Positions 999-30,892 are shown, numbered from the stretch's first letter. The stretch is 64,000 bases of DNA from Acidobacteriota bacterium (GCA_965209055.1 OZ242374.1:4736001-4800000); one strand, 5' to 3'. Notes: generated by a model not told the origin, from the sequence alone. Numbers and translations: made by a program.

Positions 999-1027
999 GG
1001 CATCTCCTTTAATTTTCAACCCGCGGG

Positions 1028-2521: not shown

Positions 2522-5500
2522 TTGTTCAACACCTCGTCCAGATTCATGAGCTGATTGGCCACCATGGTCCAAGCGGCGAACTCGGCCTTGGGAAGGCTCT
2601 CGTCGGCTTCGGAATCGCCCACCGAGAGGGCTTTCCCAGCCTGGTCGGGGTGGTCCGCGTAATAGCTCAGGTAATCGCTGAAAGCCTTCCGGGCCACCTC
2701 CTGCTCCGCCTCATGGAGAGAACGCGCCAAGAGATGGGAGGCCATGAAGTCGAGCCGCTGGTCCGCACCCGGCGCCGCCTGCATGGCCCGCTGGGCCAGG
2801 TGGCGGGCGGCTTCGAAAAACTGGACTCCATTGAGCGTCAGCAGGGCCTGTAAGGGGGTGTTCGTTCGCTCGCGCCGAACCGTGCATTCCTCCCGGGTGG
2901 GAGCATTGAAGACCACCAGTTGCGGCGGAGGCGCGGCCCGCTTCCAGAAGGTGTAAAGGCTCCTCCGGTAAATGTCCGATCCCGAGTCCTGCGTGTAGAA
3001 GCGGGTGTTGCTGCCCTCCATGGCCACCGCTTCCCACAGCCCCTCCGGCTGGTAGGTCTTGACGCTGCGTCCGCCGATTCGACGCTCCAGCAGTCCGCTG
3101 GCGGCCAGGGCGTAGTCCCGCACCATCTCCCCGTCCATGCGAAAACGGGGCCCCCGCGAGAAGAGGCGGTTTCCCGGATCCTTCTTGACCTTCTCGTCGG
3201 TGGCCCGGGCCGACTGCCGGTAGGTGGCCGAATCCAGCATCAGGCTGAAGAGATGCTTCACGTCCCAACCCGAATCCCGGAACTCCACGGCCAGCCAATC
3301 CAGGAGCTGCGGGTGCGTGGGCGCCTCGCCCTGGGACCCGAAGTCTTCCGACGTCCTGACCAGACCCGTTCCGAAGACTTCCTGCCAGAAGCGGTTCACC
3401 ATGACGCGGCTCGTGAGCGGGTTGTCGTCCGCCACCAGCCAACGCGCCAATCCCAGCCGGTTCCGCGGGAGGTTCGGGTCCATGGCGGGCAGAACACCCG
3501 GCGTGGCCGGCTGCACCTCATCGCCCCGCTGGTCGTACATCCCGCGGCGGAGGATGTGGGCCATGGGATCGCTTTCCGCGTTCTCCCGCATCACGTGGGT
3601 CAGACTGCTCCCGCGGAGGATCGAGCGCCGCTCGTCCTGAAGCGATTTCAAGTGCCGGGCCACCTCCCCGAACTCGGCGTGCCGGCGAACCAGAAAATAG
3701 GCCCGGAGCGCCTCCCGGTCGACGGCATTCGGCTTTGCCGCGTCCTGTTTCCGCAACGCAGTCAGCGAATCCCACTGCGCCAACAGCCGGGCTTCGGACT
3801 CCCCCACCGCCCGGTTCAGAATCCTGAACTGACGGATCGAACCGTTCAGAAAGTCGAACTTGCCGGCGGACGGCCGGTCTCCGGCGCCCAGCACCAAGGG
3901 CGTGCTGTTTTTGATCGATCCCTCCAGGACCCGGATGGCCCGGCCGAAGCCCTGGGTGGGCACAACGGTGCCGTCGAGGTAGAGGTTCATGCCCGTACGC
4001 TGGCGCAGGCCGTCATAGGTGACAATCACGTTGTGCCACTGATCCGGCACCAGCTTGTTCTCCTCGACGCCGCGGATCCCCATGTTGCGGCCATCCTTCA
4101 CCTGGAGGTTCAGCGACGGCCGGTCGCCGCTGATCTCCAAACTCCAGCCGCGGTTTTCATCATCGGGATCGACCTGCCGGGCCAGCATCATGCGGGAGCC
4201 CCCCTTCCAAAACCGGAAGGTCACGGAAAGGGTGAAGGGGCGGTCTGCCTGGAGCCCTGGGAAATCCTCGATCTCCAGGTAAGACTCATCGGGCAATTCC
4301 AGGGAAGGGATGGCGCCCGACCGATCGATTCGGGAGGAACCGGACAACGCTAGTTCTCTTTTCTCCGAACCGGCGCGGAGGTGGGGCGTCTCCCCCAGTT
4401 CCAGGGAGAAGACCTGGGAACCGTCGAATTCGTCCAGATCCAAATCGAGATCCCGGTCCGAGTCCAGCCAGCGGCGGAACTCCTCGTCCGCGGCCTGCTC
4501 GATCTGGTCCCGCTTGTCTCTGGCGGCCGGCTCTTCCTGCCTCAATTCCTCCCACCTGATGGCGTCGCTTCTGGCCGGCACGATCATCACTGGAGGCGGG
4601 TCGAAGGCGTTTCCGTCCAGGGGTTTCTGGGTCGTATTGCGGAAGAAGGCGGCCAACGAGTAGAAGTCCTTCTGGGTGATGGGATCGAACTTGTGGTCAT
4701 GGCAGGTGGCGCAGCCCACCGTCAGGCCCAGCCAGACCGTGCCGGTGGTGTCGACCCGGTCCTTGGCGTACATGACCTCCACTTCCTCCTTGATGACGCC
4801 CCCTTCGTTGGTGGTGATGTTGCAGCGATGGAAACCGGTGGCGACGAGTTGCTCCGGTGTCGGGTCCGGCAGCAGGTCGCCGGCCAATTGCTCCACCGTA
4901 AACTGGTCGAAGGGAAGGTTCCGGTTGAAGGCCCGGATGACCCAGTCGCGATAGGCCCACATCTCGCGGTAGTTGTCGATGTGCAGGCCGTGGGTGTCGC
5001 CGTAGCGGGCCGCATCGAGCCAATAGCGGCCCCGGTGCTCCCCGTAAGCTGCGGACCGCATCCGGCCGTCGACCCACCTGGAGTAAGCATCCGAAGAGGC
5101 ATCCGCCACGAACTGCTCCACCTCATGCGGGAGGGGCGGCAACCCGGTGAGGTCCAGGGAGGTCCGCCGAGCCAACGTGCGGCGGTCCGCCTCCCGGGCC
5201 GGCGTCAAGTCCTCCTTCTCGAGTCGGGCCAGGACAAAGCGGTCGATGGGATTGCGGACCCATTCCGGGGACTGGACCTGGGGGAGCGGGGGCCGGGTCA
5301 GAGGAGCGAAGGACCAGTGCTCCTCCCACGGAGCTCCCTCCTCGATCCAACGCCGCACCACCTGGATCTGATCTTCCGTCAGTTCCTTGTGGGCGTACTT
5401 GGGCGGCATCCGCAGGGCGGCATCCGGGTGAGTGATCCGCTGGTAGACGAGGCTTGACTCCGGGTCGCCTGGAGCAACCGGCGACCCCGCGGGCCGCTGG

Positions 5501-5769
5501 GAAAAGACGCCCTCCTCCAGGTCCAGTCTCAAGTCGGCCAGCCGGGCCTTGGGATCCGGGCCGTGACACTCGAAGCAGGAGTCGGAAAGGATGGGCCGCA
5601 CCTGCGACTGAAAGTCCACCGGCGCCTCGTCCCCCGCCGCGCCCGACGGCGGCGCACTCAACACCGCAACACCGGTAAGCACTGTCACCAGAACCGCTGA
5701 TACCTGTCTGAAAGACAACCTTGTAGGCAAGATAGCGCCTATTCTACACGGTTCCCCTGCGTGACTCAC
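2518..5769 (-). CDS. Planctomycete-type cytochrome c / DUF1549 / LamG-like / DUF1553 protein
   Basis: CFECHG and [11 protein letters not shown] heme motifs, [30 protein letters not shown]; exact start uncertain. Confidence 0.9.
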
Positions 5770-5849
5770 TAGTTCGGAGGAAAGAGCAAATGGGAATAAG
5801 GAAAGAGCGCTGTGTTGGCGGGACTAACTTGTCGGACGAACTGCGCAAC

Positions 5850-6000
5850 ATTGAAACCAGAGGCGGATCTTTCGGAGAAGGGGTTGGTTCGGCCGCGGCC
5901 ATTAGGAGCGCCATCACGCAGCCGAGGCACAAGTCCGTGTCTTGCTGCGTCGCACAATTCATCTCCAGGAACGCGGGCTGGCTGGAGGAATCCGGGACTG
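5850..6000 (+). pseudogene. Possible degenerate hicA toxin remnant
   Basis: ITQPRHKSVSCCVAQFISRNAGWL resembles the HicA C-terminus; lies directly upstream of hicB; no intact N-terminus. Confidence 0.4.
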
Positions 6001-6008
6001 GAGAAGAT

Positions 6009-6292
6009 ATGATCCAATATCCCACATTGATGGATGGTGAGGCGGGGGTCTACGGTGTTTCGTTTCCCGATCTGCCGGGGATCGTCGCCATGGGAGCGAC
6101 CAAGGACGAGGCCCTGCTGCAGGCAGAACGGGCTCTTGGAAACTATGCGGTCGAAACCGAACGAGCCGGTGAAGACATGAATCCGCCGATGCGCCCGAGC
6201 AGATCGAAATCCCGACTGGGCACACCCTGGTGTCCGGTCGGATCCCCCCGTGGCGCCAGTGGAGGGTACTCGTCAAGACGAACTGGAAGTGA
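6009..6292 (+). pseudogene. hicB: HicB family antitoxin, apparently frameshifted near 6190
   Basis: MIQYPTLMDGEAGVYGVSFPDLPGIVAMGATKDEAL; a plausible continuation DAPEQIEIPTGHTLVS lies in another frame ending TGA at 6292. Confidence 0.7.
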
Positions 6293-6409
6293 TGGAGACG
6301 AATTTGGCAGCAGTGGCTCACAATAGCCGAAACCGACACTCGATTGCCTTCGAGATTTGATCTCTTGTGAACCGGCTGACCTTGCCGGGCACGGGCCCGC
6401 TATAACTTG

Positions 6410-7165
6410 CTAATCCGTGACGCGGCGATAAAGCGATCTTGGATGTGAGCCACTGCCACCGGGTTCGGGGCGGGCTCCCGTGTCCTCATAGCCGAGCCAC
6501 GGCTTGGAGCTGTCTGCAACCAGCAGGAACTTCGGCAGGACGCCGGTGCTCCTGGCAATGCGATCCAGCAACCCACCTAGGTCGAAACGGTCGTAATTGC
6601 CACCAAAGCCATGATCCTGGATCACCGCCAGATACGGCGGGGGGGTACCGTCGCCCTGGCAGTACAGCGCGTCGTAGCTGGCAATCCCGTCACCGCCGAT
6701 GAACAGAATCGCAAGGCGTCGCGGTCCATGGTCTTCACCGCCGCGCTGTCGGTCCAGAACAACAAACCAACCGAACGGTTCAACCCAACTGTTCCTTGAA
6801 TGCTTGAGATCGTCTGCGGAAACGTGCGGCGTCCATCCGCCGGGCCGCAAGGCGTCCTTGGACACCTCCTCCTGATGGGCAATAGCATATCCGCGAAAGC
6901 TCTGTTCCCGGCTGTTCACGCGTGCGACAAGCGTGCCCGGGTCAACTCCGTAGTCGACGTATATGAAGGTGTGAGCGGCGTGAGACAACGCGCAGAGTTT
7001 CACCGGTTGTCCGTCATTTCCGCTACCCGGATAGTAGACGGTGCGGGCGGAGAAGAAAGTCTCACGGTCGAAGCGTGGAGGGTGGTTACCGGCAAGCCGC
7101 TCGGGCAGTGGTTCTGGGTCGCACCGCATAATATCTACGATGGTCGGTATAGGAGTTTCCTGCAT
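6410..7165 (-). CDS. Hypothetical protein, possible SAM-binding Rossmann-like fold
   Basis: 251-aa ORF; TVYYPGSGNDG followed by FIYVDYG. Confidence 0.65.
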   Translation of the reverse strand: MQETPIPTIVDIMRCDPEPLPERLAGNHPPRFDRETFFSARTVYYPGSGNDGQPVKLCALSHAAHTFIYVDYGVDPGTLVARVNSREQSFRGYAIAHQEEVSKDALRPGGWTPHVSADDLKHSRNSWVEPFGWFVVLDRQRGGEDHGPRRLAILFIGGDGIASYDALYCQGDGTPPPYLAVIQDHGFGGNYDRFDLGGLLDRIARSTGVLPKFLLVADSSKPWLGYEDTGARPEPGGSGSHPRSLYRRVTD

Positions 7166-7243
7166 GGTCGTCTTTCCTCACTGTCCTCCCCGCACCGCCG
7201 ACGCTCGGCATCTTGCGATGCGGCAGTACAGGAACGAGTCGTG

Positions 7244-7264
7244 GCAGAGAAGCTGACTGTCCCC
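7244..7264 (+). repeat. Island boundary repeat, copy 1
   Basis: GCAGAGAAGCTGACTGTCCCC, 19/21 identical to copy 3. Confidence 0.75.
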
Positions 7265-7310
7265 CTTCTCATCCTTGCAGTTGGGTGCCAAGTCCTGGCC
7301 GCCCAACCCG

Positions 7311-8054
7311 CTAACTTCGGACTCCGCTCCGTCGGCTGACGCGATTGAGCCGGTGCTCGAAGTACCGGCGGAACACTGCGTTCTCCGGATACGATGCCGG
7401 ATCAGCCCAGATTGCCCCAAGGCGGCCCACTAATCCGGCAATCCAATCCGCTGCCTGGAGAGTCTGATACCGGTGGCTTTCCAGATGGAACGGTGGCTCA
7501 ATAAGATGACGGCGCCGTTCCGTCCTCGCATACATGCTCCGTGCCGCTTCGGTTATCAGGGCAGATCGCTGATCGTGTTCGTCGAGAATCAGGACGAAAT
7601 TCCCAGGCGGACTACAATCCTCTTCGCAGAATCCGTCAATCCGCTTGATCGCCTCAAGAAATACCCGTGTGTAGAGCCTGTTCGAATTGTGCTCCCTCGC
7701 CGCCGTAGTCTTCTTGAGACCGACATAGAAGACGAATCCGCCGAGCGCTTCGATCTTGTTGAACAACCGGTTGGTGAACTTCCTGAGTTTTGCGTACCGC
7801 GTCACGTTCTTGACGGTGTAGAGGCTCGCCCCCTTCTTTTCCCATAGGGCGGGATGTTTCCCCGACCGGTTGATCTCAAAACTGAGGAGCTCGCACTTGC
7901 GCTGGAAGAACCAGGATCCGAACCCACGCACCACTTCGGAAGCGAGGGCGAAGCCCGCCAAGCCGAACACTGGACTGTCCTTGTACCTTCGGTCTCGCCT
8001 TCTGACGTAGGGGCCGAAATGTCCGAGTTCATCAAGATAAGCGAAGTACGTCAC
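7311..8054 (-). CDS. DUF3800 family protein
   Basis: YFAYLDELG, LILDEH and LQAADWIAG acidic motifs; likely GTG start at 8054. Confidence 0.8.
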   Translation of the reverse strand: MTYFAYLDELGHFGPYVRRRDRRYKDSPVFGLAGFALASEVVRGFGSWFFQRKCELLSFEINRSGKHPALWEKKGASLYTVKNVTRYAKLRKFTNRLFNKIEALGGFVFYVGLKKTTAAREHNSNRLYTRVFLEAIKRIDGFCEEDCSPPGNFVLILDEHDQRSALITEAARSMYARTERRRHLIEPPFHLESHRYQTLQAADWIAGLVGRLGAIWADPASYPENAVFRRYFEHRLNRVSRRSGVRS

Positions 8055-8059
8055 CGATG

Positions 8060-8135
8060 GGGTCTCCGGAAACACGAAAGCCCGTGCCGGAGCACGGGCC
8101 TCGGAAAGAGAGCAGGACGAGCTTGCATCTCACAA
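8060..8135 (-). ncRNA. Putative structured leader / DUF3800-associated RNA
   Basis: Perfect 8-bp stem GCCCGTGC-loop-GCACGGGC at 8080-8099 followed by TTTCG on the minus strand; TATAGT -10-like box at 8139-8144. Confidence 0.45.
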
Positions 8136-8208
8136 ACAACTATACCTCTTCGAAGATGATCTGCCGAAAATGGTGGGAAGCGGTCCTATTTCCAGAAATG
8201 CTCGACCG

Positions 8209-9222
8209 TTAGGGAACATCTGACCAATTCGGCCAGAGTCGCTGCGTTGGCTCCTCGAACAGAATCCGGCGCAGAACATCGATCCTGTGACAATAAGAGA
8301 GACCCACGTGCAGTTTGTACAGTTCGCCGCTCTCATGGTTGTCGTTCCGTATGTGACCGGACATAATCCCTACCAAGTGGGAACGACGGTGCCTTTCCGT
8401 CACCTGGCGCTCGCCGCCCGCGAGCTTCATTGTAAGGTGGTCGAAGAAGGGATGACCTGTCGGATAGGTCATGATAGGAGCGCCCGAGCTGCCTGCAAAC
8501 GACTGCGCCTCCAACAGGTAGATGTCGTCCTTGTCTATGTCTGGCGACTGGAAGCCACCCTTGGGGTCGCTGGATATACGGCCAGATCGAAGTATGGGAT
8601 AGCCGTTCGTCCAAGGCTGTATGGAAGTAAAGGCTACCTCGGCGCCCCATGGGAGACTGCCGCACATTTGCGCATCTTCCGTGATGTTGCGAACGTCCAA
8701 CGCGTTCAGCGTGGCGCTCGTCTTCTTCAGCGATGCGGTGGTCCCAACAAGACCACGGGCGTCCCCGATTCCGATGGCGAGCAGGGCGATGTCGAGCCTG
8801 TCGTTCTTGGGAACCAAAACGCTGAAGTCTCCGCGCGGGAGAACGGCTGGCGTGAGTCGCTCCCCTTCCTCGCCGAACATCTGAACCCGGACTTCAGACA
8901 GGTTCCAGGCGTACTCGCCAGCGTGATTGTAGGCAAAATCCACAACGTGGCGACAGGTCACGAGTACGGGCAAACTGCTGCCTCCTGCGGGCTCAGGCGT
9001 GTCAGGGGGAAGTAACCGGAGCTTTTTTATCAACACGCCGAGTCGAGGGTGTGCCGCTGAGTCCAACCGGAGGAGAAACCCGGAGCCCCGACCTGACTTT
9101 ACAGCGTCATGCCTTGTGAACGACACGTCGATTGCGGTGACCAAGGAAAGGAACCTCCTTGAGATCGAGGAGTACGGTTTGACGACAACGCCACCGTTGC
9201 CTGGTTCCTTGGCGATGGTCAT
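8209..9222 (-). CDS. Trypsin-like serine protease domain protein without signal peptide
   Basis: GSGFL, VTCRHVV (His), DIALL (Asp), AGSSGAP (Ser). Confidence 0.8.
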   Translation of the reverse strand: MTIAKEPGNGGVVVKPYSSISRRFLSLVTAIDVSFTRHDAVKSGRGSGFLLRLDSAAHPRLGVLIKKLRLLPPDTPEPAGGSSLPVLVTCRHVVDFAYNHAGEYAWNLSEVRVQMFGEEGERLTPAVLPRGDFSVLVPKNDRLDIALLAIGIGDARGLVGTTASLKKTSATLNALDVRNITEDAQMCGSLPWGAEVAFTSIQPWTNGYPILRSGRISSDPKGGFQSPDIDKDDIYLLEAQSFAGSSGAPIMTYPTGHPFFDHLTMKLAGGERQVTERHRRSHLVGIMSGHIRNDNHESGELYKLHVGLSYCHRIDVLRRILFEEPTQRLWPNWSDVP

Positions 9223-9504
9223 GTCCTATCTGTCCTTCTCTGAGTTGTGAAAAATGGCTCTTCACCTGGCGTGGTGGGCGGGGAGCATCCGAAGCTGAAT
9301 CATAGGGCGGGCTGGAGGGCTTTCGCAAGCGATGCGGTGTGACGGCGACGTGAGGGGGGAGGCGCGTAGGAATCGGGCGTACCGCCGACGCGACGAGGGA
9401 TCCTCTCGACCTCTCCACGCACAAAGGCTCGGTCTGGCCACCCAGGCCACGGGTACTGCTGCTGGACGGGGAGGAGTCGGACGGGCTACCTTTCAGGATC
9501 GCGC

Positions 9505-10006
9505 GGCTCATAGGAGATTGCGTGGTGAGGCTGCGGAGCGTCCGCCCGCAGCACCTGTCCCACAATGAGACGGAAAGGCAGTGACTGACATGGCCGGGAG
9601 GGACTTGCTGGACGCCGTTCTGGGCCTCGGACCGGAGTGGAAAGTCACGAAGGTGGAGCAGTCGCGGAAACCGAAGGAACTTCGAGTCGAGTTGCAACGG
9701 ACGCGACGGAGCCCGTTGAGGTGTCCTCACTGCGGCGAGGCATGCCCAGGCTACGATACGCGCCGCCGCAAGTGGCGGAACCCTGACGCATGGGGCTACA
9801 AAACCTTCATGGTCTGCATTGTCCCGCAGGTCGAATGCCCGGAGCACAGTGTGGTTACAATCCAGGTGCCCTGGGCGGAGGGGAGTTCGAGATATACTGC
9901 CCAGTTCGAGGCGGAAGTCATCGGGTGGCTGAAGGAAGCGAGCGTCAAGGCAGTTGCCGGGCGGATGCGGCTGAGCTGGAACGCGGTGGATGGAATCATG
10001 CAACGG
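9505..10006 (+). mobile_element. Truncated ISL3 family element (left end plus 5-prime part of transposase)
   Basis: End GGCTCATAGGAGATTGCGTGG; ORF from 9581 has CPHCG zinc finger, VPWAEGSSRYT and LSWNAVDGIMQR, then breaks at the repeat with no DDE domain. Confidence 0.85.
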
Positions 10007-10007
10007 A

Positions 10008-10028
10008 GCAGAAAAGGTAACTGTCCCC
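10008..10028 (+). repeat. Island boundary repeat, copy 2
   Basis: GCAGAAAAGGTAACTGTCCCC, 20/21 identical to copy 3. Confidence 0.85.
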
Positions 10029-10481
10029 GTCTTAGCGGTTTCCACCGTCGAAGGGTTGGCGACCGATCCGCCGTGGACGGACGCACAGTAGAGACTGATC
10101 GAGAGTGCCCCCGCTTGGCTTGAGCGGACGCATCGCGACGGCGAAGAGGTCGGCCAGGTCGCCAAGGCGATTCGCGGAATACGACCCGAGAGCATCCGTC
10201 AGCGGATACGGAAGATGCTTGATTCAAATGACCTGTCGGACTTGTGGCGGGATTGGGACGCCCTGTACGGGAAGCGGAGCCGCTTGTTCCACGGTGGCAA
10301 GAAGGACGGCGGCGAGCACCGGGGCGAACACTTGGAGGAATCCGAGCTTCACGCCTTGAGTCAAGAGGCATTGACGCTCTGTGGCAGGATCGTCCTGTCC
10401 ATGGCAAAGCGAGAATGGATTCCAGTTCCCGACCGAGCTAGCGTGCATTTCGGTGTCGATCCCCGCGAGGCCCCGGCATGA
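10029..10481 (+). pseudogene. 5-prime-truncated HEPN-like (Apea-type) gene remnant
   Basis: Frame of ORF 10215-10481 extends back to 10029 (VLAVSTVEGLA...) with one in-frame TAG; LYGKRSRLFHG carries an RxxxxH motif. Confidence 0.55.
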
Positions 10482-11209
10482 GCCGGAGCGAAGAGCGCGC
10501 GCGGTTCATTGACCGCTACGATGCCCTGCGCGGAGTCACGCTGAGAATCGCCAACGAACTGACCCCCAACGGCACGCAGGTTTTTCCATGGCCTCTTCTG
10601 ACCCGAAGCTCCATCAGTTTGGGACTCGATGAGGTCGCCAGCTTGGTCTGGGAGAACGAATCTGCGCACCGCCGCGACCACCTCATCGGCGTGCATCTCG
10701 CCATGCTTGAGAGCTACCTGTACCGGCACGGATATGTCGAAACCGGCCATTTCATCAGGATACAGGCGGGGAACTACCGCGTCGCGACGGAGGAAGTGAA
10801 GCAGTCGATCATCTCGAACGGGTTCCCAATTCGGGTCGCAACGGTTTCCAGCGCAGAGGAGTTGGAGGCGGCCACTCCGTTGCGCCGTGTCAGCGACGGG
10901 GAGTACTCGCAGACGTACGAGAAGTTGTCCGAAGCGTGGGGCGGTCTCCGCCAGAAGGAGATGGCCGAGGCTATGGAGGCGAACCTGAGGTCGATCCACG
11001 AGTTGCTGCCCCGGCACAAGATCGGAGACGATTTTCGTCGAGAGCGGCGCGAACGGATGGAGCCGTTACCCCTGTATGTTCGTAACGAAATCCACCATCC
11101 GACGAAGGGGCCGTTACTGCAGACGGAGGGGTTCCAGCAGGACAAGCGCATCGGCTACGCGATCATGAAAGCGTGGTTGTCAAAGGACGACGCACGGAGA
11201 TCGCCCTGA
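10478..11209 (+). CDS. Hypothetical protein with C-terminal HEPN-like motif
   Basis: 243 aa, ATGA-coupled to the upstream stop; YVRNEIHHP matches RxxxxH. Confidence 0.7.
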   Translation: MSRSEERARFIDRYDALRGVTLRIANELTPNGTQVFPWPLLTRSSISLGLDEVASLVWENESAHRRDHLIGVHLAMLESYLYRHGYVETGHFIRIQAGNYRVATEEVKQSIISNGFPIRVATVSSAEELEAATPLRRVSDGEYSQTYEKLSEAWGGLRQKEMAEAMEANLRSIHELLPRHKIGDDFRRERRERMEPLPLYVRNEIHHPTKGPLLQTEGFQQDKRIGYAIMKAWLSKDDARRSP

Positions 11210-11234
11210 CCCGGGGGACTTCGCGTCGCGCAGT

Positions 11235-11259
11235 GCCCCCCGCCCGCCCAGCGGGGGGC
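11235..11259. terminator. GC-rich hairpin between convergent genes
   Basis: GCCCCCCGC-7 nt-GCGGGGGGC; no U-tract. Confidence 0.35.
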
Positions 11260-11292
11260 GACCAAGGGTGCTGGAAGGGTTCGCGTGACCGA

Positions 11293-14200
11293 CTACAGCC
11301 TTCTGGAGACCCAGAGGGCGAGCAGAAAAGGTGACTGTCCCCTCTCACGGGTCTCATATCCTTCACGGACCCCACGGCTGAAGAGCACGTCGAGACGGGC
11401 GGTGCCTGCTTGAGAGGCGAGGGCCGACACGCCTGCTTGTGGCAGGTCGCGCAGGATGCCTCTCACCTGCCGGGTGCTGGGATCGACCAGGACGTACAGG
11501 GGGATATCCGTGTCACTGTCGAGCGTCACCGACCCACCGGGTCCGGAGAGCGTGATGCTTGCCAGGCTCGCCTCCCGACCGGGCTCAACCGGGAGGACAA
11601 TGGCGAAGGATGAGCTCCCGTCACCGTCGGCCACCTCGGGCATGGCGAAGCCGACGGAAAAGAGCTCGTCGCCGCTCCCGCTCCGGCCGGTGATCCGGTG
11701 CTCACCGGTGGCCCTGGGCAGCTTGGAGGGGGCATCGACGACGAAGGACGGGTTGAGGAAGAGTTGGCCCTCCGCATCTATCCCGCCCCATAGGAGGAGG
11801 GACTTTGCTTCCTGAGCGATCAGGCTCGCGGTCCGGGTCGGCCCTTCGTCGGAGAGGCGAAAGCGGAGCGCGTTGGCGAAGTGATAGTCGCTGATCCACG
11901 ACGGCTCGCAGTAGCCCATCACGTCCGGCCGGCTTGGCGACGCCAATGTGCCCCCGTAGCGGAAGTCGTACCCCCAGGCGCCGATCGATCCACCCGGGGA
12001 CGGAAACGCCGGGTCCGGTCCCCCTGCGCCTCCGCAGGGAGCGTGGTAGAGGTTCAAGTTGTGGCCGAGTTCGTGAGCTATGGTAAACGGGTTTAGCCTC
12101 GAGATGAACGTCCGTCCGCCGAGGCCTGCCGCCGCTCCTGCCTGGCCTACCTTGCCCGGGCGCGAAATCGTTCCCATGTAGTGGCCGCTCCCGCCTTCCA
12201 TGGCCCGAATCGCTTCCGTCTCGTCGAGTAGCGGGAAATATTCGTCGGGCGAAGTCGAAGTCATCACGGATGCGTGGGCCGTCACTTCCAGGTCTCTTTT
12301 CGGCAGCAGCGTACGAGTATTCCACAGTAGCTCATGGCCCTCCGGGTCCGCCTCCATAGCCTCGGCTGCTTCCACGGCCCCCCGATGGGGGTCTTCGCTC
12401 CAGAGGAAGGGAATCACCGTCAGGTGCAGCACGGGCATCTCCCGCACATCGACCGCCATGCGGCCCGAGTCCGGGATTCGCCTTGCCGTCAAAAGACCGG
12501 GATCCAGCGTTCCGTCCGGGTCGATCTCGACCACCATCTCAAGACCCGGACGTATGATCTCGCCGGGGATCTCGGCGTTGGACGACCGGGCCAGATCTCC
12601 CTCGTAAACCTCGGTCGGGAGGACCGCCGTCCGCGCCGGAATGTCGGCCACATGGATCTCGGTTCCGTCCACGTAGAACCGGGCTCGCACGGAAGGGACG
12701 GCCGCCGTCGTGGGACTCGCGGCGGTGACGAACACCCGGAGCAGCGCCTTCTCTCCGGCAACCAGCGGAACCGGATACTTTCGTGACTGCACCGCCTGGA
12801 CGAGGTATGCAAAAGCCGCGCTATCACTCACACAAGTCGCAACGCGCAGCCGGTCGATGCCTCCGAGCCAATCCTGGAAGCCAGGATCCGACGGTGCGCA
12901 AAGATCCGTTCCGCCGGCCAAAAACGTTCTGAGCCGGCCAAGACCAGTCAATTCGGTTGGAAGGTTCCCCGCCAGGCCGGAGTTCCCCGAGAGATTCAGT
13001 TCCGTCAGGCTCGTGAGGCTGCCGAGCTCGGGCGGTATGGGCCCGCCCAGCCGATTGCGATTGAGAATCAACTCCGTCACGCGCCCCTGATTATCAACGG
13101 TGATCCCATGCCAGTCCCTGAGAGGCCGGCTGGTCCCCCAGTTCCCGCTCTCAAACCAGTCGGGTCCGCCGGTGGATTGGTATAACGCCATCAGCGCGTC
13201 CCGCTGGGAGACCACTACTACAGCCACTCTGACCGTTAAGGATGCCGTCCGCGTCTGACCGTCGGCGCCGCGCACCGTGATTTGGTACGTCGTCGTGGTG
13301 CGCGGCGACACCCTTCGCGAGCCCGCTGCCGGGACTGTGCCGAGGTCCGGTGAGATCTCCACGCTCTCCGCATTCGTCGACGACCACGTCAACGTGGCGC
13401 TCTCGCCCAAATTAATCGAGCTCGGAGCAACCGACAGCGTCACTGTCGGCGCAGGAGCTTGGCGGCCAGTCCCGTCTTCCCGAACCGCAAGCCCAGCGGG
13501 GCGAATTGCGAATCGTCCCCCGATCGAATGAACAGCAGACCCCGAAAGTCGCTCAGGAATCCCGTATTCACCACGGCGAGCCATTCCGAAAGCGTGAGCG
13601 CGTCCTGCCGGAAGTCTCCCCGTGGGATGAACACCCCGTTCAACGGGTCGTTCCCTTCCTCGTCGCGGAGGCGCAGCTCGACGTTCGGGGCGGCATCCGG
13701 TTTGAAGAAGGCCACCCCGGAGCCGATCGCCGACGATTCCTCAACGAACAGGGCGAAACGGCTTCCCAACTCCACGGGCTTCACGCTGGCCTCGACTCCC
13801 GTCTCGTCCTGCCGGTAGGTCAACAACCCGCTGACCGACGCCGAACCGGACTCGACCTCGATCCAGCCTCGCCGGATCGTTCCCGCGCCCGCGCTCTTCA
13901 GCACCCGGCTGCCCAACGACGGGATCTCGAAGGTCGATTCAGAATCGAACAGGTCCGAGACCGCCCGGCCGTCCTGGTCGAACACGTCCAGGTGGATCTC
14001 GGCGGCGTTCACCGCGTCGATGTTGCTCAGCGCCAACTGCACGGACCAGCCGCTTCCGTCTACAAAGTCCGGGAGGTAAAAGGTCGTCTTCTTCGGCTCC
14101 TGGGTCTCATCCCGGATGGCGGGAACCGACGAGAGCGATTGGTTCCTCTTCCCGAACCGAAGTCCCAGCGGGGCGAAGGTCGATTCGTCCCCGGTCAGCA

Positions 14201-14777
14201 GCAACAGGAGACCCCGGAAGTCGCGCAGGAACTCCTTGTTGATCCCTTCCGCCGTGAACCATTCCGGAAGCGTGAGAGCCTCTTGGTGAAAGTCTCCCCG
14301 GGAGACGAACAATCCCTCCAACGGGTCGTCTCCCTCTTCGTCCCGGACCCGGAGCTGGAAGCTGGAAGAGGGATTCGGCTTAAAGACCGCCACTCAGGCG
14401 CCCACGTCGGCGGACTCCTCGACGAACAGGGCGAAACGGCCGACCAATTCGGCCGATTCCACGCTCACCTCGATCCCGGTCGTCCCCTCCCTGTAGGTCA
14501 GCAGCCCGCTGACCGAGTCCGTCCCGGTCCGGACCCGGATCCAACCCCGCCGAATGTCTTCCGTGCCCGAGCTCCTCAACACCCAGCTGCCCAGGGGCGG
14601 GACCTCGAAAGTCAATCCCGAATCGAACAGAGACTTCTCCACCTGCTCCTGAGTCTGGTTCCGGATCGAATCTTCGTACGGGGATCGAGCGTTCTCCAAC
14701 GGCTGGGCGGGTCTTTGCTCCGAATGCGCGGCCGGCAACTGCAACAAGACGAACAAGGGAACCCAGATATTCTTCAT
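11293..14777 (-). pseudogene. Disrupted secreted multidomain protein (two repeated beta domains, Ig-like, LRR, HEXXH metallopeptidase)
   Basis: Signal peptide MKNIWVPLFVLL; in-frame TGA at 14394-14396; frame change near 13480; LGGPIPPELGSLTSL LRRs; IAHELGHNLNLYHAPCG zinc motif. Confidence 0.8.
11322..11342 (+). repeat. Island boundary repeat, copy 3
   Basis: GCAGAAAAGGTGACTGTCCCC. Confidence 0.85.
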
Positions 14778-14882
14778 GGTGATTCGAGCATCCACATGGT
14801 CACATGGGGTTCATCTCACAAGAAACTATGAGGAACGAGGAGTTAGCAAGGAGGAAGTAATTTATTGGACAGTATATCCGAA

Positions 14883-14898
14883 GCAGAAAACTGTCCCC
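14883..14898 (+). repeat. Island boundary repeat, copy 4 (5-bp internal deletion)
   Basis: GCAGAAAA directly joined to CTGTCCCC, preceded by the same A as copies 2 and 3. Confidence 0.6.
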
Positions 14899-15165
14899 AT
14901 CCCTGCTCCGCTCGACGATGTTTCGGGTGATGCGGCGGCGATCCTTTAACAACCCCTTCCCAATCCGACGAGCCCATTGTTGTCAATGTCTGATTCGACT
15001 CCAGACCCGCTTGAATCGCTTCGAACTATTCCACGATTTTCGTTGCTCTCCTCACCGTCTTCCCAGGTAATTTTGCCACGCTCTCTAATCTCACCAACCG
15101 CCATGCGCCGCTTGATACTTGACCTGCGGGATTCTACGATTCAGCCAAACTGAGGAACGTTGCTC

Positions 15166-16302
15166 ATGACCATTCTCCAAAAACGACTCCTGCTGGTTGC
15201 CGGGCTGCTCGCGGCTGCGGGACTGATCTGGGTTCCGATGGCCGGCAGCGCCGGCAGCGCCATTCCCGACATCTCGGGAAAGATCCTGACGGTGAGGGGA
15301 CCCATCGACCCGGGGATGGTGGGGCCCACCATCATGCATGAGCACGTCCTCCTCGACTATCGCGGAAGGCCGAAGGAGGGGCTTACGGCCACTGAAGCGG
15401 CTTTCTACGAGCAGCCCGTCTCCCTCAGGAACCTGAGCCGGCTGCGCTCCTGGGTCTCGCCCAACGCGGACAACCTGATTCTGGGCGACGTGGACGTGGC
15501 CATTCGCGAAGTGCTGGAGTTCAAGCGCTGGGGCGGCAGCGGGATCGTGGACTGCACCAGCATCGGACTGGGGCGCGACCCGACGGGTCTGCTGCAGGTC
15601 TCCAACGCCACCGGGCTCCACATCGTCATGGGCGCCGGCTGGTATACCCACCCCTTCCATCCAGCAGACATGGGTTCCCGGACGGTAGAGGAACTGACCG
15701 AGATCATCATCAAGGACATCACCGTTGGAGCCGAGAGCACGGCGGTCCGGTCCGGCATCATCGGTGAAGTGGGCGTGGGAAATGCACTCAATCCCAATGA
15801 ACTCAAAAGCACCCGGGCCGCCGCCCGCGCCAGCCGGGCCACCGGCGCCGCCATTTCCTTTCACCACGCCGGTCGCGGCGAGCAGAAATTCACCGTCCTG
15901 GACATGGTGGAGGCGGAGGGCGCCGATCTGAACCGGGTCATCATTGGTCACTCCAACCACATCGCCACCCAGATCCCCTACATGAAGCGCCTCTTGGAGC
16001 GGGGGGTCTACATCCAATTCGACCTCATGGGAGAGGTGATCCCCCGGCTGGGACGGATCCACGACTATGATACGGTCCGGTCCATCGTCCAACTGGTCCG
16101 GGACGGATACGCGGACCGGTTGCTCCTCTCACAGGACGTCTGCACCAAGACCATGATGAAGACGTACGGGGGCCAGGGGTTTTCCTTCGTGATGGAGTTC
16201 GTCCTGCCCGAGTTGAGACGCCTGGGAGCACCGGAGGAGGCGCTCCATCAGATCATGGTGGAGAACCCGCGCCGGGTTCTGACCTTCGCCAAGCCGGGAT
16301 AG
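15166..16302 (+). CDS. Phosphotriesterase-related amidohydrolase, exported
   Basis: Signal peptide; IMHEHV, GLGRDP, GIIGEVG, IIGHS, LLLSQD, VENPRR. Confidence 0.9.
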   Translation: MTILQKRLLLVAGLLAAAGLIWVPMAGSAGSAIPDISGKILTVRGPIDPGMVGPTIMHEHVLLDYRGRPKEGLTATEAAFYEQPVSLRNLSRLRSWVSPNADNLILGDVDVAIREVLEFKRWGGSGIVDCTSIGLGRDPTGLLQVSNATGLHIVMGAGWYTHPFHPADMGSRTVEELTEIIIKDITVGAESTAVRSGIIGEVGVGNALNPNELKSTRAAARASRATGAAISFHHAGRGEQKFTVLDMVEAEGADLNRVIIGHSNHIATQIPYMKRLLERGVYIQFDLMGEVIPRLGRIHDYDTVRSIVQLVRDGYADRLLLSQDVCTKTMMKTYGGQGFSFVMEFVLPELRRLGAPEEALHQIMVENPRRVLTFAKPG

Positions 16303-16354
16303 TCCGATTCGATGGGCCGCCGGCCCCTGGCCGGAGCGCCGTGACGAACCGGGA

Positions 16355-17701
16355 TCACTGCTTGATCACGGTTCCATCCCGCCGCCGAATCACGCCCCAG
16401 CCGCCGTTGTACTCTTTCCTCTCCCCCGACTCGAAACTTCCGAAGGGATACTTGCGCGCCGCCGCTTCGTCCACCTCGATACCCCAGCCGGGCTTCTCGC
16501 TGGCGAACAGGTAGCCGTTCCGGTATTCGGGGCAGCCCTGGAACACCTCCAGTTCACGCTCCGAGAAGCCGGGAAACTCCTGGATGCCGAAGTTGTAGCA
16601 GGCCAGATCCAGCGCCACGTTGCCCGCATGTCCGATCGGCGAGACGTCCCCGGGACCGTGCCAGGCGGTTCGGACACCGAAAAGCTCCCCCAGGGCCGCG
16701 ATCTTGCGGCAGGGCGTGAGGCCCCCGGCCTGGGAAATGTGGATACGGATATAGTCGAAGAGCCTCTCGGAAATGAGGGGAATCCATTCGTGAGGACTGT
16801 TGAAGAGCTCTCCCATGGCGATGGGCGTGGTGGAGTGGCGGCGGATCAGCCGGAAGTACGCGATATCCTCGGGAGAGACGGGGTCCTCCAGGAAAAAGAG
16901 GCGAAACTGCTCCACGTCCTTGCAGAGCTGGAGCGCCTGGGTGGGGGTGATCCGTTCGTGGACGTCGTGGAGCAGCTCCACTTCTTCGCCCAACTGCTTC
17001 CGGCATTCCTCGAACAGGGACAGGATCCGGCGGATATAGGGAGCCGGCTCGAAAACCGGGTCGTCGTGCAGCTTCGCCACGGGGCGTCCCCCGGAGTGGC
17101 CTCCGTATCCGGACATCCCGGGCACACCCACTTGGACCCGGACGTGGCGGACGCCATCTTCCATGAAGGCCCGGGCCTTTTCGATGACCTCCCCGATCTC
17201 GGCGCCGCTGGCATGGCGGTAGCAGTCGGCCGCCTCGCGGCATTTTCCGCCCAGGAGCTGATAGACCGGCAACCCCGCCTGGCGGCCCTTGATGTCCCAG
17301 AGGGCCATGTCCACCCCGCTGATGGCATTGTTCAGGACCGGGCCGTTCCGCCAGTAGGAGCTGTTGTAGCAGGCCTGCCAGGTGTCATCGATCCGGTCGG
17401 CCGGCTTGCCCACCAGAAACGGCTTTAGGTACTGCTCCACCGCGGGAACCACCAGGTCGGCCCGCTGCGTGAAGGTGGCGCATCCATAGCCGTAGAGGCC
17501 ATCCTGGTCGGTGAGGACCTTCACCACCACCAGACGCAGACCCCTGGGGGCGGTGGCAATGACCTGGATGTCCCGAATCCGGGGAGGCGGCATTCCCCGG
17601 GTCCTCTTCTCCACGAGTGCCCGAGCTTCGATTTCCTTCGAGGAAACGACGCCCGAGAGGGCGCCGGCAGCCAAACCGCCCAGAAGTCCACGTCTGTGCA
17701 T
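16355..17701 (-). CDS. Enolase superfamily acid-sugar dehydratase (RspA/mannonate dehydratase-like)
   Basis: RRGLL Tat-like start; YWRNGPV, LLHDVHE, FLEDP, AMGEL, WHGPGDVSP. Confidence 0.9.
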   Translation of the reverse strand: MHRRGLLGGLAAGALSGVVSSKEIEARALVEKRTRGMPPPRIRDIQVIATAPRGLRLVVVKVLTDQDGLYGYGCATFTQRADLVVPAVEQYLKPFLVGKPADRIDDTWQACYNSSYWRNGPVLNNAISGVDMALWDIKGRQAGLPVYQLLGGKCREAADCYRHASGAEIGEVIEKARAFMEDGVRHVRVQVGVPGMSGYGGHSGGRPVAKLHDDPVFEPAPYIRRILSLFEECRKQLGEEVELLHDVHERITPTQALQLCKDVEQFRLFFLEDPVSPEDIAYFRLIRRHSTTPIAMGELFNSPHEWIPLISERLFDYIRIHISQAGGLTPCRKIAALGELFGVRTAWHGPGDVSPIGHAGNVALDLACYNFGIQEFPGFSERELEVFQGCPEYRNGYLFASEKPGWGIEVDEAAARKYPFGSFESGERKEYNGGWGVIRRRDGTVIKQ

Positions 17702-17811
17702 TTTCCGCCTCCTTACCATCAAGACATGTTTCGCGTGTTATTCGGACTCTCGTGCCGTAGTAGACTGGGCCGGAAAACGATGCGGGAAATCCCACGCCCG
17801 ACGAGCCGAGC

Positions 17812-18789
17812 ATGAAGACCCTGAACCGGCGCCGCTGGATCTCCGGCCTGGCTCTGACGGCCGCCGCCGGGCGCAGAGGCCTGGCCGCCCCGTCCGGACC
17901 CACTGTGGTCGACGCCCATGCCCATATCTGGTCGCCGGACCTCCGGAAGTATCCTCTGGCGCCGGGCCTGATCCGGGAGAACCTCTGGTTTCCCAGCTTC
18001 ACGGTGGAAGAGCTGGTCCAGAAGGGCACGCGGGCCAGAGTGACCCGCTACAACCTGATCCAGATGACCTGCTACGGTCTCGACCACAGCTATATCCTCG
18101 ATATCATCGCCAACGATCCCACGCGGTTCGTGGGGACCGGTATCGTTCCCGCCGTCAGCGACGTTTCCCTTCCCAGCCCCGACCGCACCATGAAGGCCCT
18201 GGCCCGAGGCGGCATCTACGCGTTCCGGATCCGCGGACGATCGACCCGTCCCGCCATGCGAAGTGGCGAACGCTGGATGGACCACCCGGGCTTCGACAAG
18301 ATGTTCGCCGCCGGAGCCCGCCACGACCTCTGCCTGAGTTTCCTCATGACTCCGGCAGACCTGCCCGAGTTGGATCGCATGTGCCGGCGTTTTCCCGAAA
18401 CTCCTGTGATCATCGACCACTTTTGCCTGATCGGCAAGCAGGCCAACCGGGTGGAAGAGGAGACCCGCGCGCTGTGCCGCATGGCCCGGCACCCCCGGGT
18501 CATGCTGAAGCTGGGCGCATTCTACGCCTTGGGCAAGAAACGCCCGCCTTACCTGGACATGCTCCCGCTGATTCGCCGGTTGGTGGATGCCTTCGGCCCC
18601 GACCGGTGCATGTGGGAGAGCGACGCTCCCTTGCAGACAAAGAACGGCCATACTTTCGAGGCCGCCGTCGCCGTGATCCGGGACCACGCCGATTTCCTCT
18701 CCTCCTCGGACAAGCAGCAGATCCTGTCCGGGACGGCCGAGAAGCTCTTTTTCCACCGAAGTCCCCCAGTCTCCGACGATGCAGCTTGA
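17812..18789 (+). CDS. Amidohydrolase family protein (lactonase-like), Tat signal
   Basis: NRRRWI; VDAHAHIW, IIDHF, CMWESD. Confidence 0.85.
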   Translation: MKTLNRRRWISGLALTAAAGRRGLAAPSGPTVVDAHAHIWSPDLRKYPLAPGLIRENLWFPSFTVEELVQKGTRARVTRYNLIQMTCYGLDHSYILDIIANDPTRFVGTGIVPAVSDVSLPSPDRTMKALARGGIYAFRIRGRSTRPAMRSGERWMDHPGFDKMFAAGARHDLCLSFLMTPADLPELDRMCRRFPETPVIIDHFCLIGKQANRVEEETRALCRMARHPRVMLKLGAFYALGKKRPPYLDMLPLIRRLVDAFGPDRCMWESDAPLQTKNGHTFEAAVAVIRDHADFLSSSDKQQILSGTAEKLFFHRSPPVSDDAA

Positions 18790-18845
18790 AGGTGGCGGCG
18801 GAATCGCCGGGACTTTAGAATAGGTCGGCAAAAGGAGCACCTGCC

Positions 18846-19931
18846 ATGAAACTGGGATTCTTCACCATGCCCCTGCATCCACCGGGGTCCGACTTCACCG
18901 AAACGCTGGAAAGCGACCTGGAGCAGATCATCACCCTGGACCAACTGGGGTTTCACGAGGCTTGGCTCGGCGAGCACTTCACCAGCGTCTGGGAGAACAT
19001 CCCCGCTCCCGACCTGCTGCTGGCCAGCGCCATCCCCCAGACCGAGCAGATCATCATGGGAACCGGCGTGACCTGCATGCCCAACCACAATCCCTTCGTC
19101 ATTGCCAGCCGCATCGCCCAGTTGGACCACATGTGCCGCGGAAGGTTCTACTGGGGCGTGGGCTCGGGGGGGTTTCCGGGCGACTTCGAGGTCTTCGGGT
19201 TCGATCCCAAGACCGGCGAGCAGAGGGGGATGACCCGTGACGCGGTCGACGTCGTCCTCCAGCTCTGGCAAGATCCGCGGCCCGGCCTTTACGAACACAA
19301 GCACTGGCGTTTCACCGTGCCGGAGCCTCAATCGGACATCGGCCTCCGGTTCCACCTGAAGCCCTACCAGAAACCTCACCCGCCCATCGGCGTCGCCGGC
19401 GTGTCGGTCAAATCCGGAACTCTGGTGCGGGCCGGAGAGGAGGGCTGGATTCCCATGAGCATCAACATCGTGCCGACCAGAATTCTCAAGTCCCACTGGG
19501 AGGCGGTGTTGGAAGGAGCCGCCACCACCGGACGGACTCCCGACCGGAGCCAGTGGCGCGTGGCCCGAAACGTGTTCGTAGCAGACACGACCGAGGAAGC
19601 CAGGCGGTGCGTCCTGGAAGGGACCATGGCGCGGGACTTCGAGGACTACTTCCTCCGCCTGTTGCCCAAGTGCAAGATGCTCGACCTGATGAAGACCGAC
19701 CTCGACATGCCCGACTCGGACGTGACCCCGGAATACCTGCTGGACAACCTCTGGCTCGTGGGCAGCCCCGACGACGTGGCCGAGAAGCTCCAGGCGCTTC
19801 AGGACGACCTGGGCGGCTTCGGAGTCCTGCTGGTTCTGGGTCATGAATGGGACCCGAAGGACCGCTGGGTCGAGTCCATGCGGCTTCTCCAGGAAGAGGT
19901 TTTGCCGCGGGTCAATGGAGCCGGGGAGTAA
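18846..19931 (+). CDS. LLM class flavin-dependent oxidoreductase
   Basis: MKLGFFTMPLHP, AWLGEHF, KPYQKPHPPI, VGSPDDV. Confidence 0.9.
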   Translation: MKLGFFTMPLHPPGSDFTETLESDLEQIITLDQLGFHEAWLGEHFTSVWENIPAPDLLLASAIPQTEQIIMGTGVTCMPNHNPFVIASRIAQLDHMCRGRFYWGVGSGGFPGDFEVFGFDPKTGEQRGMTRDAVDVVLQLWQDPRPGLYEHKHWRFTVPEPQSDIGLRFHLKPYQKPHPPIGVAGVSVKSGTLVRAGEEGWIPMSINIVPTRILKSHWEAVLEGAATTGRTPDRSQWRVARNVFVADTTEEARRCVLEGTMARDFEDYFLRLLPKCKMLDLMKTDLDMPDSDVTPEYLLDNLWLVGSPDDVAEKLQALQDDLGGFGVLLVLGHEWDPKDRWVESMRLLQEEVLPRVNGAGE

Positions 19932-20019
19932 AGAGATGGCTGGCAATGTCCCCACTCCCAAAAAGTGAGGCATTAGCGGAATTCCGGCGGAAGTCTGAGG
20001 ACAGCGAGGAATCGGGATC

Positions 20020-30861: not shown

Positions 30862-30883
30862 GGGGGACAGGAATGTCCCCCCT
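30862..30883. repeat. REP-like palindrome
   Basis: GGGGGACAGGAATGTCCCCC in a convergent intergenic gap. Confidence 0.55.
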
Positions 30884-30892
30884 CCAAACGGC

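Follow-up and report, generated by a model that had tools for sequence, protein, structure and literature searches.

What are the short repeats that separate unrelated genes in one island of a bacterial chromosome, and does an enzyme acting at them account for the make-up of that island? The island lies in a 64,000-nucleotide stretch catalogued as Acidobacteriota bacterium (GCA_965209055.1 OZ242374.1:4736001-4800000; hereafter the window, meaning the whole stretch that was analysed). An original prediction, made from this sequence alone, had proposed four co-oriented 21-bp sites between positions 7,244 and 14,898 as a candidate DNA-capture array. By sequence comparison, we show that the sites are units of a repetitive extragenic palindrome (REP)-like family tied to genes for REP-associated tyrosine transposase (RAYT)-like Y1/HUH enzymes. 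We also show, as judged from genome alignments, that the units mark the seams of accessory modules in hypervariable loci. As a correlation, the link between the units and module turnover is strong.

A family of short, co-oriented repeat units

With up to three mismatches allowed, the 21-mer was found at three positions in the window, all on the + strand: 7244 (two mismatches), 10008 (one) and 11322 (none). The number expected by chance in the 64-kb window was 0.00 (100 shuffles). The 9-mer ACTGTCCCC, the core of the repeat, occurs at four sites, again all on the + strand (7256, 10020, 11334 and 14890), against 0.83 expected per window, and four copies were reached in 0/100 shuffles. Three of the proposed sites are strong copies of 21-23 nt, far beyond chance, but the fourth is a degenerate family member that has only GCAGAAAA and CTGTCCCC in common with the others. 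Similarity among the copies stops at about 26 nt, and the flanks do not align. No further strong copy was found in the 64-kb window, as had been stated; it holds only a hairpin-type relative at 30863-30884 and weak look-alikes at 19945 and 28471. The units are:

7244..7270 (+): REP-like unit, copy 1 (GCAGAGAAGCTGACTGTCCCC followed by the right arm CTTCTC)
10006..10028 (+): REP-like unit, copy 2 (GAGCAGAAAAGGTAACTGTCCCC, 23 nt), which abuts a truncated ISL3 gene
11320..11350 (+): REP-like unit, copy 3 (GAGCAGAAAAGGTGACTGTCCCC) with the 8 nt that follow, the right end of a 5.6-kb segment missing from the relative G001
14883..14898 (+): copy 4, degenerate member (GCAGAAAA-CTGTCCCC), located between two divergent genes and with nothing in common with the other copies but the 9-mer core and a portion of the left arm

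All copies keep one orientation, despite co-directional, convergent and divergent pairs of neighbouring genes. Short-read contigs span every copy with 0 differences (5566-8101, 9961-11681 and 13893-15152); they come from a run that covers 98% of the stretch and may be its source sample. The junctions, for which misassembly had been a concern, are therefore not assembly joins. Chance similarity or an assembly artefact can practically be dismissed as the explanation of the sites, given the bridging by independent contigs, the shuffles, a reversed-pattern control with 0 matches in the genome and the retention of the family in 8/8 genus relatives.

The host genome, a single contig of 6.08 Mb with 62.8% G+C, carries PSCyt1/PSCyt2/PSD1 and DUF1501 domain genes and was read as that of a planctomycete. 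In it, the 21-mer class has 14 copies at up to two mismatches (reversed control, 0), and exact GTGACTGTCCCC has 28 (control, 0), nearly all of them intergenic and many between convergent genes. A relaxed search extended the family to 142 genome units, with (G)ACTGTCCCC between purine-rich and pyrimidine-rich arms. A unit measures about 24-26 nt, the core (G)TGACTGTCCCC having a left arm rich in purines and a right arm rich in pyrimidines; the consensus of the window subfamily is rGAGAAGGTGACTGTCCCCTTCTC. Information content is limited to about -9..+14 around the core and falls to background outside, and a longer conserved element around the motif was rejected on this ground and for lack of alignable flanks. 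A 17-mer (at most one mismatch) was found in 8/8 same-genus genomes (9-46 copies), in 0/6 genomes of the sister genus and once each in 2/16 others.

The clustering and shared orientation that the original prediction asked to be looked for hold genome-wide. For 79% of 53 sites a neighbour lies within 10 kb, compared with 16% on average and 40% at most when sites were placed at random 1000 times. Neighbours 150-5000 bp apart are on the same strand in 18/19 pairs here and in 53/56 pairs in eleven arrays of relatives; overall, 71 were on the same and 4 on the opposite strand (binomial p 7e-17). Array spacing is 0.4-5 kb, with genes between the units. Copies of the subfamily (12 forward and 10 reverse, interspersed along the genome) are not oriented according to the two GC-skew arms, and a replication-strand rule was rejected. 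A sister subfamily of hairpin type (GGGGGACA-GGAA-TGTCCCCC; GGGGGACAGGAATGTCCCCCC at window 30863-30884) does fold (DNA z -2.13). Its class (GGGGGACAGGAATGTCCCCCC) has 54 genome copies, mostly reverse at 0-3.5 Mb and mostly forward at 3.5-5 Mb.

The cargo of the arrays is heterogeneous. Among 135 proteins the commonest families were HTH_3 (10), HTH_31 (9), BNR_2 (5), DUF4177 (5) and DDE_Tnp_1 (4), with PIN domains and methyltransferases also present. At G002 L001 9060-11136, three tandem 697-bp cassettes each contain one unit and two small open reading frames (ORFs), and unit pairs lie 20-35 bp apart; tandem periods of 20-50 bp occur elsewhere. At L063 1124-1395 (genome 5955124-5955395), a repeat of about 270 bp starts 20 nt after a singleton unit. 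It has 26 copies in G005 among the matches listed (89-95% identity) and several in other members of the genus, and has the look of a miniature inverted-repeat transposable element.

RAYT-like genes and the units that flank them

A Y1/RAYT-type enzyme acting in trans, encoded outside the window, had been suggested as one candidate for the capturing activity. A Y1_Tnp search of the genome gave five matches and a protein search six related RAYT-like genes, all outside the window and bracketed by units with the ACTGTCCCC core. Four ORFs (311-369 aa) pass the Pfam Y1_Tnp cut-off (27.9-36.8 bits vs 23), and the same four align with NCBIfam REP_Tyr_transpos across positions 3-145 of its 146 (E 7e-14 to 2.5e-12), though below its 80-bit equivalog cut-off. 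Across 15 homologues, H63, Y162 and N166 are invariant and H65 is nearly so (HuH and Y-x-x-x-N); in the proteins of this genome the motifs read NHYH/NHFH and LYVELNAVRAG. Residues from about 200 to 311 form a conserved C-terminal region (YRARLYYRG ... LRFLTDG ... YRRRRHPIP ... LREQRS) that matches no Pfam family; classical RAYTs are much shorter than these proteins.

All six RAYT genes here have ACTGTCCC[CT] within 265 bp, whereas only 7.6% of random points have it within 1500 bp. The placement of the units is also regular. At the RAYT loci of the genus, units lie upstream in antisense orientation in 15/15 cases and downstream in sense orientation in 14/15, the exception being cut by a contig end; at those of the sister genus the counts are 6/6 and 5/6. 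The reverse layout is rare, with one upstream-sense and two downstream-antisense units among 27 RAYT loci (20 genomes). Beside the RAYT genes of this genus, upstream units are of subfamily GGAAAAACAGACTGTCCCCTTTT and downstream units of subfamily GGAAATCGAGACTGTCCCTTT. In G004, units similar to the window subfamily are interleaved with these two beside a RAYT gene, and in G023, whose RAYT is 74% identical, the downstream array is GGTGACTGTCCCCTTCTCC, the window subfamily itself.

Variants of the core follow the lineages of the RAYTs: the ACTGTCCCC type accompanies RAYTs with at least 74% identity (the genus and G023), and the TCTGTCCCC type accompanies the sister-genus RAYTs, with 44-56% identity. 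Correspondingly, 8/8 genus relatives have 17-96 copies of GACTGTCCCCTTYT each, this genome 23 and G023 57, but sister-genus genomes 0-1; for GTCTGTCCCCTTYT the counts are 3-19 in each of 6/6 sister-genus genomes but 0-1 in this genus (controls gave 0-1). In the sister genus and in G023, the copies listed lie mostly within tens of kilobases of a RAYT gene. The RAYT genes are themselves multi-copy: this genome has 6, of which three share 97-100% identity, and genus relatives have 3-13. In this respect they are not the single-copy, vertically inherited and domesticated genes of REPtrons.

Two RAYT loci showed further features. In G023, about 70 kb around a RAYT gene (C1:1420538-1489814) holds 52 of the 57 genome units, and in places 12 and 15 copies are packed into runs of 1.5-2.2 kb. 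In the present genome, one RAYT gene together with both of its unit arrays is bracketed by a direct repeat of about 131 bp (90% identical; 5164313-5164443 and 5165944-5166075), which is the 3' end of the gene next to the RAYT gene.

Units at the seams of accessory modules

The predicted tie between the sites and synteny breakpoints was borne out across the genus. We compared 73 motif sites in 24 loci of relatives, 36 of which had at least one flank in this genome that reaches the site; as controls we used 90 intergenic sites, 50 with such a flank, from the same loci, which had been chosen for their arrays, so that the control is internal only. Homology was broken at 35/36 motif sites and at 29/50 control sites (Fisher p 2.8e-5). 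In 14 pairwise comparisons, whose pairs are not independent, 83/167 internal ends of homology blocks fell within 30 bp of a unit, although units with 30 bp on each side cover only 2.4-7.3% of each locus.

Individual cases suggest how such breaks look. Between G006 and G002, the cassette between two units has been swapped; homology ends 5 nt after one core and resumes 9 nt before the next. At one orthologous site with collinear flanks the unit alone is missing in G006 and present here, and there G004 and G002 carry nested deletions, unequal in length, that begin at the right edge of the unit. For three singleton copies outside arrays, homology breaks adjoin the unit in all three; one of them, at genome 237083, lies inside an N-terminal coding extension, where the breakpoint coincides with the gene start, and is ambiguous. 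Also ambiguous is a purine-rich run 5' of the unit in orthologue comparisons, which could be target or part of the unit. A repeat of 1.2 kb inside one inter-unit segment (genome G000 3228340-3229540) has 15 other copies at 97-100% and 9 more at about 93% over about 1.03 kb, and is probably an ordinary insertion sequence.

In the window, ORF scoring and Pfam place unrelated blocks between the copies, as had been proposed:

1..5768: conserved left flank, with a DUF1501 gene and a PSCyt1/PSCyt2/PSD1 gene
5769..7243: module A, with a HicB-like ORF at 5790-6326 (+) and a 251-aa ORF at 6410-7165 (-)
7271..10005: module B, with a DUF3800 gene at 7311-8075 (-), a trypsin-like gene at 8209-9222 (-) and an ISL3 transposase N-terminal fragment at 9581-10005 (+)
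10029..11319: module C, with an open frame without family at 10092-10481 (+) and a 243-aa ORF at 10478-11209 (+)
11351..14882 (-): module D, a large surface-protein gene of leucine-rich repeat (LRR) type, broken here (ORFs 11293-13584, 13440-14393 and 14394-14795) and found in 5/8 relatives
15003..19929: conserved right flank, with a phosphotriesterase-family gene, an enolase-superfamily gene and others

Positions 5769-15000 are a hotspot: the flanks, 1-5768 and 15003-19929, are kept at 86-92% in 8 relatives, the middle differs in each, and the synteny of the left flank ends at 5768 in 8/8. Modules were gained, lost or reordered at the sites, as the original prediction would have it. G001 is without 5769-11350 (5.6 kb); its junction reads GTCTCA/TATCC, and the ancestral letters resume at 11351, 8 nt after copy 3. 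A contig of metagenome X6 joins 6376 directly to a unit and continues from 7263 onward, and so lacks 6377-7262 and hence the 251-aa gene. In a contig of X5, the end of copy 3 is followed by 16 other nt and then by 7224 onward, so that module C and copy 3 come before copy 1 and module B. Both contigs are 88-95% like the window and therefore come from related organisms, not from this strain. Other genomes match the DUF3800 module at five loci, and the match begins 13-36 nt beyond copy 1, at window positions 7277-7300.

The claim that a transposase gene stops at the left edge of copy 2 proved correct. The ISL3 fragment holds the Zn-ribbon and HTH domains only; DDE_Tnp_ISL3 has no match anywhere in the 6.08-Mb genome, and neither a second copy of the fragment nor its missing half was found there. 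In metagenome run X5, high-copy contigs with intact ISL3 continue beyond 10005 with a different sequence. The gene is therefore cut at 10005/10006, the exact left edge of the 23-nt unit GAGCAGAAAAGGTAACTGTCCCC. Two companion claims fell. The headless 'HEPN-like' frame to the right of copy 2 gave no HEPN match at E<=1 and is interrupted by a stop at 10089-10091. The surface-protein gene thought to run through copy 3 is not cut there: the ORF across the copy is a 22-codon tail made by a 22-bp deletion, and the G001 and G006 proteins end in AAWGP and a stop at the junction.

Of the conflict-type cargo that had been listed, DUF3800 was confirmed by a family match (E 2.5e-15) and a HicB-like antitoxin was found as well. 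The trypsin-like match is below the Pfam cut-off but matches the PADLOC candidate PDC-S45 (E 1.7e-7), and HEPN dropped out. Defence annotation of the cargo gave this one weak PADLOC candidate match and nothing more. Rfam had no match at E<=1 in 5500-15500, and no tRNA was found in 1-25000, so that a tRNA-linked island was rejected.

Some features of the modules stand apart from the units. The LRR-type gene (window 11293-14795), three ORFs here, is a single ORF of 1422 aa in G006, G002 and G007. Repeats within the gene lie about 675 bp from each other (300 nt at 72% identity and 94 nt at 78%), and paralogues of the gene are clustered in G001 at 3.75-3.80 Mb. An 18-nt repeat lies just upstream of two minus-strand gene starts, at 8126-8143 (CATCTCACAAACAACTAT) and 14812-14829 (CATCTCACAAGAAACTAT), and may be a shared leader or ribosome-binding region.

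How the seams may arise

We lean, without great confidence, towards the view that the sites are planctomycete REPtron-family units, cognate to multi-copy RAYT-like enzymes that act in trans on adjacent DNA. As IS200/IS605 enzymes do, they would work on a single DNA strand, which they would nick next to a unit. Strand transfer to a second unit, or to a target without strict definition, would then insert, delete or exchange the DNA that adjoins the unit. Every such event would leave each seam with a single unit in fixed orientation, and off-target cuts could give rise to truncated genes (such as the ISL3 fragment), to nested deletions from the right edge of a unit and to end points in unit-free DNA. 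Excerpts of one study report that in vitro E. coli TnpA-REP cleaves to either side of a REP and carries out strand transfer, and put forward a two-cut model that excises a single-strand circle for bacterial interspersed mosaic elements (BIMEs) (PMC3333891). Extended to two co-oriented units with genes between them, such a model would leave one unit per seam. We infer that RAYT nicking and strand transfer may create the seams. It is conceivable, if rather doubtful, that units and enzymes together form a single-strand, HUH-driven counterpart of integrons, in which a trans-acting Y1 platform would insert, excise and reorder arbitrary DNA of gene size at a 24-26 nt site, so that planctomycetes would build up arrays of accessory and conflict genes in one orientation, and in which the pyrimidine-rich right arm may guide to complementary purine-rich targets.

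Several observations weigh against RAYT action at the units. Shuffled sequence folds as well as the window subfamily does (z 0.09, 0.24, 0.06, -0.74 and -1.06), so that a stable hairpin was rejected for this subfamily, which, unlike classical REPs, is also without a GTAG-type tag. Arm complementarity is barely above that of shuffled pairings (4.65 vs 4.37 +/- 0.07), a level that shared ancestry could explain. In this genome the units that flank RAYT genes belong to other subfamilies than those of the window, and no RAYT gene lies in the window, the nearest being about 190 kb away. The top PDB profile match of the enzymes, E. coli TnpA-REP 4ER8, is aligned over the Tyr motif but is not significant (E 0.14), and a single-sequence PDB search with a RAYT gave no relevant match. 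The 5.6-kb insertion entered a unit-free site and is flanked by a 6-bp near-duplicate, G(T/A)CTCA (GACTCA at the left end), which the IS200/IS605 mode does not predict. Where the DUF3800 module occurs at five other loci in relatives, a strong unit adjoins it in 0/5. A second copy bounded by units exists in this genome for 0/33 inter-unit segments, and recent copy-and-paste of whole modules was rejected there. No excised, rearranged or circular joint at a unit was found in the contigs of the run that holds the window, contigs being of a kind that drop rare forms and circles; the circular junctions that had been proposed as a check therefore did not appear. What stands of the candidate DNA-capture array is a set of sites that are real, co-oriented, clustered and placed at breakpoints. 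A dedicated capture device does not follow, given the unit-free DUF3800 loci, the missing second copies and the lack of circles in contigs.

The main rival, which is possible though we think it on the whole unlikely, is that the units are passive, and that host recombination, slippage, template switching or the repair of breaks at fragile sites acts on these homologies of about 24-26 bp without RAYT catalysis. In enterobacteria, rearrangements are known to have their join points at REPs, and the minimum length for RecA-dependent exchange lies at around 25 bp. The co-orientation of the units and the presence of one at each seam suit homology-driven integration and excision equally well: a circle with one unit that integrates by homology at a chromosomal unit would also give co-oriented units, one per seam. 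Tandem amplification of units and cassettes (the three 697-bp repeats in L001, the 20-50 bp periods), the absence of recent unit-bounded duplicates in this genome and the movement of the DUF3800 module without units in other genomes point the same way. Exchange between two units cannot, however, explain events with one end in unit-free DNA, such as the G001 junction (GTCTCA/TATCC), the X6 joint at 6376 and the ISL3 break at 10005. Nested deletions that share one edge of one unit are typical of events directed by the end of an element, and the insertion or deletion of a unit alone needs a mobilising activity.

That the repeat is instead a regulatory or RNA element (a terminator, an mRNA-stability element or an operator) that travels with a cassette, so that breakpoints merely reflect gene ends, seems improbable to us. 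Nearly all exact copies lie in intergenic DNA, many of them between convergent genes, and excerpts of two papers credit classical REPs with such roles (PMC3733652, PMC2817692). But the orientation of the units is unrelated to that of the flanking genes, a significant fold and an Rfam match at E<=1 are both lacking, controls in the same loci were broken far less often, and tandem arrays of units lie beside RAYT genes. A recombinase had been the other enzyme proposed to do the capturing. An integron-like or Xer/dif-module-like tyrosine recombinase would find a 7+9+7 nt imperfect palindrome, GAGAAGG-TGACTGTCC-CCTTCTC, with short inverted arms around a strongly conserved centre, in co-oriented arrays with gene-sized spacing, and the genome has 58 Phage_integrase matches. 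We nevertheless hold this to be very improbable. Integrase genes are no nearer to units than random points are (2/58 within 1.5 kb of a unit, against 7.6% at random); recombinases are absent from the 25 families most often matched by the 135 array proteins; and no serine recombinase or resolvase was found in the genome, so that a tyrosine or serine recombinase partner was rejected. The attC-type length, fold and GTTRRRY core are all missing, and the core is tied to Y1/HUH genes instead. Among the integrase matches, 27/58 give almost the same match (profile 3-166 or 5-166, 90-100 bits; frames of 378-559 aa), for example C1:4722034-4722489, about 14 kb left of the window; they look like a multi-copy tyrosine-recombinase element without association to units.

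As in the REPtrons of E. coli, Pseudomonas and Stenotrophomonas, a Y1/HUH gene is bracketed by an inverted short repeat that is dispersed in many, mostly intergenic copies and whose variant co-varies with the enzyme. Unlike there, the units of the window subfamily are not clear palindromes and have no GTAG or CGTC tag; units form tandem direct arrays next to the RAYT gene and co-oriented gene-spaced arrays rather than alternating BIMEs, and lie at module seams. The RAYTs here are multi-copy (3-13 per genome), not single-copy, and the proteins, at 311-369 aa, have a conserved family-less C-terminal extension. By sequence, the system is REPtron-like in its enzyme, flanking layout, dispersal and co-variation, and departs from REPtrons in palindrome and tag and in lacking a single-copy domesticated gene.

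The enzymes also recall class 3 TnpA-Y1, described in excerpts of Quentin et al. 2018 (PMC6006769) as rare and found mainly in Planctomycetes and Acidobacteria, also in Proteobacteria. According to the same excerpts, several related genes occur per genome, flanked by multi-copy 'atypical secondary structures', as an intermediate between insertion sequences (IS) and REPtrons (PMC6006769). A planctomycete Y1 family with several gene copies and flanking multi-copy repeats is what we find here as well, but the motifs quoted for class 3 (NHVH and YV[VI][AENY]EQ; PMC6006769) differ from NHYH/NHFH and LYVELNAVRAG. Class 3 is also given a CnGA foot (PMC6006769).

IS200/IS605 elements move by 'peel and paste', with both ends in the same orientation and a short target beside the left end; they have subterminal hairpins at each end, insert 3' of a fixed tetra- or pentanucleotide and duplicate no target. 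Their enzymes belong to the same Y1/HUH superfamily, but the modules here have neither subterminal hairpins nor a transposase inside and carry heterogeneous host and accessory genes. IS91/ISCR one-ended capture and the dif modules of Acinetobacter plasmids are further cases in which short sites or single ends delimit captured DNA, including partial genes. No IS91-type Rep gene was found beside the arrays here, and the units are co-oriented and do not resemble 28-bp Xer sites. For IS200/IS605 enzymes, transposition is strand-specific and single-stranded (in part from excerpts of PMC3333891, in part general background).

Integron arrays share with the present loci short co-oriented sites, one per cassette, and unrelated, promoterless-looking genes, including some of toxin-antitoxin type, whose content varies between relatives. 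There is, in contrast, no IntI or attI here, the site is about 24 nt and unfolded, against about 57-141 nt for attC, which folds with R/L boxes, and the enzyme is of the Y1/HUH type. The 53 sites genome-wide, 0.4-5 kb apart with genes between them, show neither the regular short spacing of CRISPR nor a single 28-bp terminus site as for dif. In length, fold, core and spacing the sites are thus not attC-, dif- or CRISPR-like, as had been stated from the outset. In the open-access literature, no title or abstract was found that describes co-oriented REP-type units delimiting gene-sized modules, and a paper seen in excerpt calls the mechanisms by which REP-type repeats disseminate poorly understood (PMC8266576).

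The cellular role of RAYTs, the spread of REPs and their part in shaping genomes are still unsettled. This lineage offers recently duplicated, multi-copy RAYTs, short units that can be tracked, and accessory islands in which about half of the homology breakpoints lie at units; variants that occur in nature, among relatives and sponge-metagenome strains, differ at the units by entire modules. The in vivo question of whether a Y1/HUH enzyme moves or breaks DNA at its repeats is therefore testable here. If RAYT-like enzymes do act at the units, they would provide a route of gene-cassette turnover without an integrase or a classical transposon. If they do not, the REP-like family could still be the main predictor of the sites of genome plasticity.

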